Of a stretch of DNA of 64,000 bases, positions 1 to 3,152 are shown in pieces. A model generated the notes under the pieces. The model saw nothing but the letters and a program-made list of their open reading frames with translations. It had not been told where the DNA came from and made no database searches. The stretch lies in assembly GCF_003790525.1 (NCBI RefSeq), contig NZ_CP033635.1; one strand, written 5' to 3'. The translations under genes were made by a program, and so were the position numbers. Position 1 is the stretch's first letter; each line of letters starts with the position of its first letter. The stretch is from Escherichia coli (GTDB lineage: Bacteria; Pseudomonadota; Gammaproteobacteria; Enterobacterales; Enterobacteriaceae).

Positions 1-468
1 CGCTGTGCCAGCCATTTTACCGCCGTCTTTACCGGTCAGGGTGATCACTTTCATCCCCTTCTCACGCGCCGCCGCGATCGCTTTGATCACGTTTGCAGAG
101 TTACCGGAGGTGGAGATCCCCAGCAGTACATCGCCTTCGCGACCTACCGCTTCAACGTAACGGGAGAAAATATCATTGAAACCAAAATCGTTACCGACGC
201 AGGAAATATGACTAACGTCAGAAATGGCAATCGCCGGGTAGCCCGGACGGTTTTCACGGTAGCGACCGGTCAACTCTTCGGCAAAGTGCATAGCGTCGCA
301 ATGGGAGCCGCCGTTGCCACAGGAAAGCACTTTGCCACCGGCTTTAAAGCTGTCTGCTAACAGGACCGCCGCGCGCTGAATGGCGTGAATATTGGCGTCA
401 TCTTTTAAAAAGTTAGCCAGCGTTTCCGCCGCTTCGTTCAGTTCATTACGAATAAGATCCTGGTACAT
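1..468 (-). CDS. gmhA: Phosphoheptose isomerase (sedoheptulose-7-phosphate isomerase), truncated by window edge; start codon at 466-468
   Basis: Reverse-strand translation from 468 reads [21 protein letters not shown]..., recognised GmhA N-terminus; 3' part of gene lies beyond position 1. Confidence 0.9.
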
Positions 469-669
469 GAGGATATCCTTCAGCATAAATGTAATAGACA
501 AAATGCAGTGTACCGGATACCGCCAAAAGCGAGAAGTACGAGCAGGTGCTATGACCAGGACTTTTTGACCTGAAGTGCGGATAAAAACAGCAACAATGTG
601 AGCTTTGTTGTAATTATATTGTAAACATATTGCTAAATGTTTTCACATCCACTACAACCATATCATCAC

Positions 670-686
670 AAGTGGTCAGACCTCCT
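670..686 (+). promoter_or_regulatory. Candidate FadR operator in fadE leader (aagTGGTCaGACCtcct)
   Basis: Match to the TGGTC-N-GACC core of the FadR box consensus, 20-40 bp upstream of the fadE start; known family of FadR-repressed fad genes. Confidence 0.5.
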
Positions 687-707
687 ACAAGTAAGGGGCT
701 TTTCGTT

Positions 708-3152
708 ATGATGATTTTGAGTATTCTCGCTACGGTTGTCCTGCTCGGCGCGTTGTTCTATCACCGCGTGAGCTTATTTATCAGCAGTCTGATTTTGCTC
801 GCCTGGACAGCCGCCCTCGGCGTCGCTGGTCTGTGGTCGGTGTGGGTACTGGTGCCTCTGGCCATTATCCTCGTGCCGTTTAACTTTGCGCCTATGCGTA
901 GGTCGATGATTTCCGCGCCGGTATTTCGCGGTTTCCGTAAGGTGATGCCGCCGATGTCGCGCACGGAGAAAGAAGCGATTGATGCGGGCACCACCTGGTG
1001 GGAGGGCGACTTGTTCCAGGGCAAGCCGGACTGGAAAAAGCTGCATAACTATCCGCAGCCGCGCCTGACCGCTGAAGAGCAAGCGTTTCTCGACGGTCCG
1101 GTAGAAGAAGCCTGCCGGATGGCGAATGATTTCCAGATTACCCATGAGCTGGCGGATTTGCCGCCGGAGCTGTGGGCGTATCTTAAAGATCATCGTTTCT
1201 TCGCGATGATCATCAAAAAAGAGTACGGCGGGCTGGAGTTCTCGGCCTATGCCCAGTCTCGCGTGCTGCAAAAACTCTCCGGCGTGAGCGGGATCCTGGC
1301 GATTACCGTCGGCGTGCCAAACTCATTAGGCCCGGGTGAGCTACTGCAACATTACGGCACTGACGAGCAGAAAGATCACTATCTGCCGCGTCTGGCGCGT
1401 GGTCAGGAGATCCCTTGCTTTGCACTGACCAGCCCCGAAGCGGGTTCCGATGCGGGCGCGATTCCGGATACCGGGATTGTTTGCATGGGCGAGTGGCAGG
1501 GCCAGCAGGTGCTGGGGATGCGACTGACCTGGAACAAACGCTACATTACGCTCGCACCGATTGCGACCGTGCTTGGTCTGGCGTTTAAACTCTCCGACCC
1601 GGAAAAACTGCTGGGTGGCGCAGAAGATTTAGGTATTACCTGTGCGCTGATCCCGACCACCACGCCGGGCGTGGAAATTGGTCGTCGCCACTTCCCGCTG
1701 AACGTACCGTTCCAGAACGGACCGACGCGCGGTAAAGATGTCTTCGTACCGATCGATTACATCATCGGCGGACCAAAAATGGCCGGGCAAGGCTGGCGGA
1801 TGCTAGTGGAGTGCCTCTCGGTAGGACGCGGTATCACCCTGCCTTCCAACTCAACCGGCGGCGTGAAATCGGTAGCGCTGGCAACGGGTGCGTATGCGCA
1901 CATCCGCCGTCAGTTCAAAATCTCTATTGGTAAGATGGAAGGGATTGAAGAGCCGCTGGCGCGTATTGCCGGAAACGCTTATGTAATGGATGCTGCGGCA
2001 TCGCTGATTACCTACGGCATTATGCTCGGTGAAAAACCTGCCGTGCTGTCGGCTATCGTTAAGTATCACTGTACCCACCGTGGGCAGCAGTCGATTATTG
2101 ATGCGATGGATATCACTGGTGGCAAAGGCATTATGCTCGGGCAAAGCAACTTCCTGGCCCGTGCTTACCAGGGCGCACCGATTGCCATCACCGTTGAAGG
2201 GGCTAACATTCTGACCCGCAGCATGATGATCTTCGGACAAGGAGCGATTCGTTGCCATCCGTACGTGCTGGAAGAGATGGAAGCGGCGAAGAACAATGAC
2301 GTAAATGCGTTCGATAAACTGCTGTTCAAACATATCGGTCACGTCGGTAGCAACAAAGTTCGCAGCTTCTGGCTGGGCCTGACGCGCGGTTTAACCAGCA
2401 GCACGCCAACCGGCGATGCCACTAAACGCTACTATCAGCACCTGAACCGCCTGAGCGCCAACCTCGCCCTGCTTTCTGATGTCTCGATGGCGGTGCTGGG
2501 CGGCAGCCTGAAACGTCGCGAGCGCATCTCGGCACGTCTGGGGGATATTTTAAGCCAGCTTTACCTCGCCTCTGCCGTTCTGAAGCGTTATGACGACGAA
2601 GGCCGTAATGAAGCCGACCTGCCGCTGGTGCACTGGGGCGTACAGGATGCGCTGTATCAGGCAGAGCAGGCGATGGACGATTTACTGCAAAACTTCCCGA
2701 ACCGCGTGGTTGCCGGGCTGCTGAATGTGGTGATCTTCCCGACCGGACGTCATTATCTGGCACCGTCTGACAAGCTGGATCATAAGGTGGCGAAGATTTT
2801 ACAAGTGCCGAACGCCACCCGTTCACGTATTGGTCGCGGTCAGTACCTGACCCCGAGCGAGCATAACCCGGTTGGTTTACTGGAAGAGGCGCTGGTGGAT
2901 GTGATTGCCGCCGACCCAATTCATCAGCGGATCTGTAAAGAGCTGGGTAAAAACCTGCCGTTTACCCGTCTGGATGAACTGGCGCATAACGCGCTGGCGA
3001 AGGGGCTGATTGATAAAGATGAAGCAGCTATTCTTGTGAAAGCTGAAGAAAGCCGTCTGCGCAGTATTAATGTTGATGACTTTGATCCGGAAGAGCTTGC
3101 GACGAAGCCGGTAAAGTTGCCGGAGAAAGTGCGAAAAGTTGAAGCCGCGTAA
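708..3152 (+). CDS. fadE: Acyl-CoA dehydrogenase FadE (814 aa)
   Basis: ORF 630..3152; start trimmed to [11 protein letters not shown]... giving 814 aa, as recalled for E. coli FadE; acyl-CoA dehydrogenase domains throughout. Confidence 0.93.

Follow-up and report, generated by a model that had tools for sequence, protein, structure and literature searches.

Results

The fadE/gmhA intergenic region

The DNA analyzed here is a stretch of 64,000 nucleotides (64 kb; hereafter the window) from Escherichia coli, at the left end of which the divergent genes lpcA (gmhA) and fadE are separated by an intergenic region of 237 bp. This region houses the 17-mer AAGTGGTCAGACCTCCT at window positions 670-686 (read there as aagtggtcagacctcct), in agreement with the letters recorded in the first-pass annotation, and the end of the 17-mer is 21 nt from the fadE ATG at 708. 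The features of the locus are listed below by window coordinates.

1..470, minus strand: 5' portion of the lpcA/gmhA gene, which runs off the edge of the window (annotation; the K-12 equivalent is gmhA)
630..635, plus strand: inferred fadE -35 hexamer, TTGCTA (TTG(C/A)TA invariant in alignments)
653..658, plus strand: inferred fadE -10 hexamer, TACAAC (TA(C/A)AAC block conserved)
670..686, unstranded: very probable FadR operator, 17 bp, AAGTGGTCAGACCTCCT (sequence, consensus match, symmetrised PWM, and conservation)
673..682, unstranded: dyad core TGGTC-A-GACC, two putative half-sites for a FadR dimer (one occurrence in 64 kb)
693..698, plus strand: probable fadE ribosome-binding site, AAGGGG (read from the sequence)
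708..3152, plus strand: fadE, the regulated gene, coding for acyl-CoA dehydrogenase (annotated in RefSeq on the identical sequence of SMS-3-5; end taken from the open reading frame)

The start codon of lpcA/gmhA ends at position 470 on the minus strand. The purine-rich AAGGGG at 693-698 lies 10 nt before the fadE ATG and has GGAG-like counterparts in all aligned taxa. Window bases 300-1100 are 100% identical to SMS-3-5 and were matched in 5,423 of 5,426 complete E. coli genomes. In K-12 MG1655, the same 17-mer occupies positions 243,325-243,341, and 104 of the 105 bases compared around the operator are the same, the sole difference being a C in the window, 26 nt upstream of the site, where K-12 has a T. 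The K-12 fadR DNA was matched in 5,422 of 5,426 complete E. coli genomes, a figure that applies at the level of the species, as fadR lies outside the 64-kb window.

Two observations on the wider genomic setting may be recorded. Approximately 2.1 kb outside the window on its left side, the annotation of SMS-3-5 gives yafQ, the toxin gene of the dinJ-yafQ toxin-antitoxin pair, as a pseudogene with a frameshift, and the antitoxin gene dinJ as intact. In addition, 8 of the 5,427 matching places for the fadE/lpcA region (window 300-1100) fall on plasmid-labelled records, as do 12 matching places for fadR in E. coli, and these records are probably mislabelled replicons or assembly artefacts.

Match to the FadR motif

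That the sequence at 670-686 fits the FadR palindrome had been proposed at first pass, and the description holds: the 17-mer agrees with the FadR core at 9 of 9 positions and with the published consensus at 13 of the 16 specified positions, from which it departs at positions 3, 15, and 16. The core, TGGTCNGACC, occurs once in the 64 kb, at 673-682, where 0.38 occurrences would be expected, and at least one match was found in 30 of 100 shuffled windows. Allowing up to three mismatches, the published consensus AACTGGTCNGACCWGTT is likewise matched once in the window, at 670-686, with 0.63 matches expected.

For matrix scoring, a PWM was built from seven FadR operators, with fadE left out. The sites of fadB and fabA and sites 1 and 2 of fadD entered the training set as what we take to be FadR operators, and their sequences were confirmed to be present upstream of those genes in K-12. 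The sequences of fadL sites 1 and 2 were taken from the LldR SELEX paper, and the fabB site was also derived from the literature. A scan with a FadR matrix, which had been suggested as a check on the site, gave an answer that depends on the form of the matrix. In the symmetrised PWM, 670-686 scores 13.7 bits, ranking first among 63,984 positions (the training sites score 9.2-19.9), and matches this good are expected 0.57 times per 64 kb and 0.002 times per 237-bp intergenic region. In the non-symmetrised 7-site PWM, by contrast, 670-686 comes only fourth in the window, with 7.2 bits as written and 9.8 bits as the reverse complement, and scores below all seven training sites. The low score is due to the G at position 3 and the CC at positions 15-16. 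We judge the non-symmetrised PWM to be overfitted, given a tiny training set and a symmetric dimer, and the symmetrised matrix to be the fitting one.

The runner-up 17-mer in the intergenic region reaches only 4.4 bits in the symmetrised PWM, and the reported FadR site of fadE can therefore hardly be anything but 670-686. The motif match itself is not beyond chance in 64 kb, so it is position and conservation that carry the argument.

Conservation of the operator

Orthologous loci were collected with the first 400 residues of FadE and one genome per species, which returned 80 loci, 79 of them usable, ranging from Escherichia albertii to Vibrio, Aliivibrio, Aeromonas, and Agarivorans. A site with no more than three mismatches lies within 300 bp upstream of fadE in 77 of these 79 loci, as against a single one of 775 control segments of 300 bp from the same loci. 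The better-scoring orientation is that of the fadE strand in 75 of the 77 sites; in the other two, both from Dickeya, the reverse complement scores higher. The only degenerate operator is the one upstream of fadE in Arsenophonus nasoniae, an insect symbiont (CACAGATATGACCTCCG, 7 mismatches), and in a Plesiomonas MAG the site carries 5 mismatches with the core almost intact.

Among 15 genera of Enterobacteriaceae, 16 of the 17 operator columns are invariant, the variable one being the unspecified centre, and the spacer positions that flank the operator vary. The site reads AACAGGTCnGACCTCTT in Erwiniaceae, Yersiniaceae, Morganellaceae, and Aeromonas. Here, and in Enterobacterales families other than Enterobacteriaceae, the left arm changes from TGGTC to AGGTC, opposite GACCT, to give the perfect palindrome AGGTCnGACCT. 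Dyad symmetry is thus retained despite a change in sequence, a pattern that marks a dimeric protein binding to DNA and not an RNA element. Among E. coli records, the 46-mer at 655-700 is identical in 5,379 of 5,424 records, in contrast to the surrounding 801 bases, for which only 39 E. coli records are at least 99% identical.

The leaders of fadE differ in length and content among taxa. Those of Brenneria and Pectobacterium exceed 100 nt, compared with approximately 40 nt in E. coli, and that of Dickeya oryzae contains three tandem copies of the 9-nt unit aaacggatt.

Promoter geometry

The first-pass annotation had also located the site after the likely promoter and ahead of the fadE start, and this placement is borne out by a conserved pair of hexamers, TTGCTA-17-TACAAC, the -10 member of which ends 11 nt before the operator in E. 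coli. A scripted search for TTGMTA-17-TANAAC at 4-15 nt before the operator (mode 11) succeeded in the window itself and in 68 of the 78 loci where the operator pattern had been located (69 of 79 sequences in all), and the same search on shuffled upstream segments succeeded in 3.6%. The spacing of the -35 and -10 hexamers in these promoter pairs is 17 bp, except in three, where it is 16 bp. The distance from operator to ATG ranges across taxa from 18 to 132 nt. As the distance to the promoter is kept and the distance to the ATG is variable, the operator tracks the promoter and not the ribosome-binding site.

Comparative data across approximately 80 species therefore pin the operator to the promoter, and they predict a fadE transcription start at approximately 664-667, 6-8 nt past the -10 hexamer, which would place the operator at about +4/+6 to +20/+22. 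A generic sigma-70 scan did not report the plus-strand fadE promoter and returned only a candidate on the minus strand. TACAAC was missed because the scan requires a T at the last -10 position, and the promoter assignment consequently rests on conservation. The portions of the Cappable-seq, SMRT-Cappable-seq, and Kim 2012 supplements that were examined list no fadE start near K-12 243,32x-243,35x; fadE is repressed in standard media. According to a 2022 review, the FadR sites of fadL, fadE, fadBA, and fadIJ overlap the start sites, the fadE start being a genome-wide prediction only (PMC9329746). With the start inferred as above, the position of the operator just after the -10 hexamer agrees with the start-overlapping fadE site of the review.

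Other conserved blocks of the intergenic region

Two further blocks of the spacer are conserved. The first, at window 595-637, lies upstream of and overlaps the fadE -35 hexamer, and reads aaTGTGAgctttgTTGTAATTAtatTGTAAAcatATTGCTAAA. Strongly conserved in taxa as distant as E. coli, Aeromonas, and Plesiomonas, it combines an invariant TGTGA with a pair of (T)TGTAA repeats spaced by 11 bp. Candidates for this block are a CRP half-site, direct repeats for ArcA-P, or the promoter of the divergent gmhA gene. The generic scan lists a gmhA promoter candidate on the minus strand, with GTGAAA at 646-641 and TACAAT at 623-618. According to the review, ArcA binds the fadE promoter and control by CRP is not settled (PMC9329746). 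The second block, at window 500-535, reads AGTGTACCGGATA(G/C)CG...GCGAGAAG and is conserved across Enterobacteriaceae. Located 30-65 nt ahead of the oppositely oriented gmhA/lpcA start, it is presumably the promoter or leader of gmhA.

Discussion

FadR repression of fadE

Taken together, we consider it very likely, with a probability of roughly 93%, that window positions 670-686 are the FadR operator of the fadE promoter. The literature establishes both that FadR represses fadE and that acyl-CoA releases FadR. FadR is a dimer of the GntR family, the winged-helix domains of which bind a 17-bp palindrome with the consensus aaCTGGTCnGACC(T/A)Gtt, and at fad promoters it bars the access of RNA polymerase (PMC9329746). 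Acyl-CoA of at least 14 carbons binds the C-terminal domain, shifts the spacing of the recognition helices, and frees the DNA (PMC9329746). The same review lists fadE among the genes directly repressed by FadR, citing Campbell and Cronan (2002, J Bacteriol 184:3759) for the fadE site, but notes that there have been few studies of fadE expression and calls for binding experiments (PMC9329746). The suggestion, made at first pass, that FadR represses fadE is supported by the review and, in addition, by a recent preprint in which oleate induces a fadE_200-lacZ fusion, carrying approximately 200 bp upstream of the start codon, and deletion of fadR derepresses it. The response of this 200-bp fusion places the responsive element within window 508-707, which contains no credible site other than 670-686. 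FadR control of fadE has also been documented in Vibrio and Aeromonas.

A full-text search of the literature for the 17-mer returned only the LldR and PdhR SELEX papers, plus unrelated matches, and a search for FadR ChIP or footprint-seq data found nothing usable. The 2002 work on the fadE site reportedly included a gel shift.

From the position of the operator, we infer a steric mode of repression. When long-chain fatty acids are absent, a FadR homodimer would sit, through its winged helix-turn-helix domains, on the half-sites TGGTC and GACC. As the operator would begin approximately 5 nt downstream of the predicted start, straight after the -10 hexamer, bound FadR would cover about -1 to +25 and may sterically block productive open-complex formation or promoter clearance by RNA polymerase, thereby repressing fadE. 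Acyl-CoA would then alter the spacing of the recognition helices, whereupon FadR would leave the DNA and fadE would be transcribed.

Possible action of LldR and PdhR at the same site

The alternative that survives best is that LldR (lactate), PdhR (pyruvate), or both would activate fadE from the 17-mer, as its main users or alongside FadR, so that their signals and that of acyl-CoA would converge there, although we regard this as quite unlikely. Genomic SELEX of LldR assigned to the fadE/gmhA spacer an LldR box, AggaGGTCtGACCAcTT, which is the reverse complement of 670-686 and matches at 12 of 14 positions; LldR also gel-shifts a fadE/gmhA fragment, and fadE mRNA rises on overproduction of LldR and falls in an lldR mutant (PMC10272880). 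However, the LldR binding data go no finer than fragments of 200-300 bp and were obtained with the protein at a molar excess of 40- to 640-fold, SELEX gave an intensity of 7.3 at fadE, compared with 62.9 at lldP, and FadR is nowhere mentioned in the paper (PMC10272880). PdhR SELEX selects the fadE/gmhA spacer too, and fadE mRNA is lower in a pdhR mutant (PdhR paper), but the box proposed by those authors lies elsewhere, at window 544-560 on the minus strand (TCCTGGTCATAGCACCT).

The 544-560 box was rejected as a FadR site because its score is low (3.2 bits) and its conservation fails already in E. albertii. This box and the operator are related as a 71% inverted repeat (537-557 and 673-693).

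A position of approximately +5 to +22 would be implausible for an activator, and the operator is conserved in Vibrio and Aeromonas, in which fadE is under documented FadR control. The two "LldR boxes" at fadL are, we assume, sites 1 and 2 of the FadR operators of fadL, and in the symmetrised PWM both score inside the range of the FadR training sites, to which both belong. The LldR boxes at fadE and fadL therefore suggest cross-recognition of FadR sites by a paralogue, and their overlap with FadR operators bears on how the SELEX data are to be read.

It is nevertheless tempting to imagine that the single fadE operator serves as a docking site common to FadR, LldR, and perhaps PdhR, at which lactate or pyruvate status competes with acyl-CoA status. 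We hold this to be an unlikely proposal, offered tentatively; if true, the LldR boxes obtained by SELEX at these two genes, fadE and fadL, would reflect cross-occupancy of FadR operators with a physiological role and not a cross-reaction in vitro.

Unlikely alternatives: RNA-level action and chance

Very improbable, in our view, is action at the level of RNA, in which the right arm, CCUCCU, would pair with the Shine-Dalgarno sequence AAGGGG in a hairpin at 682-698 that limits translation or else terminates or attenuates transcription. A terminator-like stem was indeed marked by the scan at 682-698, followed by the tail CTTTTCGTTA; most Enterobacterales have both CCTCYT and a ribosome-binding site of the GGAG type, and the right flank, CTCYT, is a conserved departure from the FadR consensus. 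The stem, however, comprises 5 pairs, one of them G-U, and the leader folds at -11.1 kcal/mol (z = 0.42), with 128 of 200 shuffles at least as stable. As a terminator or leader hairpin, 682-698 was rejected, being not above shuffles and, in an Rfam search, matching no family. Complementarity to a Shine-Dalgarno sequence cannot covary, and it therefore lends the hairpin no independent support. Conservation likewise speaks against the hairpin. It is dyad symmetry that is preserved; the distance kept is that to the promoter and not the 18-132 nt to the ATG; and Vibrio retains the site with a ribosome-binding site that is approximately 50 nt off and not complementary.

That the site is a functionless chance palindrome is effectively refuted by the conservation data, for although approximately 0.4-0.6 matches of such quality are expected per 64 kb and the naive 7-site matrix ranks it only fourth, the chance expectation in the 237-bp spacer is 0.002, the operator is kept in 77 of 79 orthologous loci compared with 1 of 775 controls, the 46-mer around it is near-invariant in 5,424 E. 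coli records, and the downstream gene, fadE, is a classical member of the FadR regulon.

Comparison with known systems

The closest known system is the FadR operator of fadE (yafH) in K-12, which has the same 17-mer, gene, divergent neighbour, and position relative to the promoter, and from which nothing substantial differs. The operators of fadB (ATCTGGTACGACCAGAT), fadL (sites 1 and 2), and fadD (sites 1 and 2) are also 17-bp imperfect palindromes around TGGTnnnACC and, like that of fadE, lie at or just after the -10/+1 region of a gene for beta-oxidation or transport and are relieved by acyl-CoA. In contrast to fadL and fadD, which have two FadR sites each, fadE has a single one. The fadE site further differs from the other repressor operators in having G rather than C at position 3 and CC at positions 15-16, whereas its core, TGGTCnGACC, is more complete than that of fadD or of fadL site 2.

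The activator sites of fabA and fabB (AACTGATCGGACTTGTT and GGCTGATCGGACTTGTT) share with fadE the same protein and the same 17-bp frame. FadR activator sites lie upstream of the -35 element and aid the binding of RNA polymerase (PMC9329746), whereas the fadE site lies downstream of the -10 hexamer and would repress. The boxes of LldR and PdhR (AAnTGGTCnGACCAnTT and AATTGGTnnnACCAATT) have the TGGT-n3-ACCA architecture in common with the fadE site, and both proteins are GntR regulators of the FadR subfamily, but LldR and PdhR are proteins distinct from FadR and have different ligands.

That FadR represses fadE is textbook knowledge on the control of beta-oxidation in E. coli, and the site therefore has little discovery value; it is rather a positive control, in that a real operator was recognizable from sequence alone. 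As far as its letters can tell, the site at 670-686 is an already known element, the FadR operator of fadE in a strain other than K-12, in which all of the sequence-level defining features are present.
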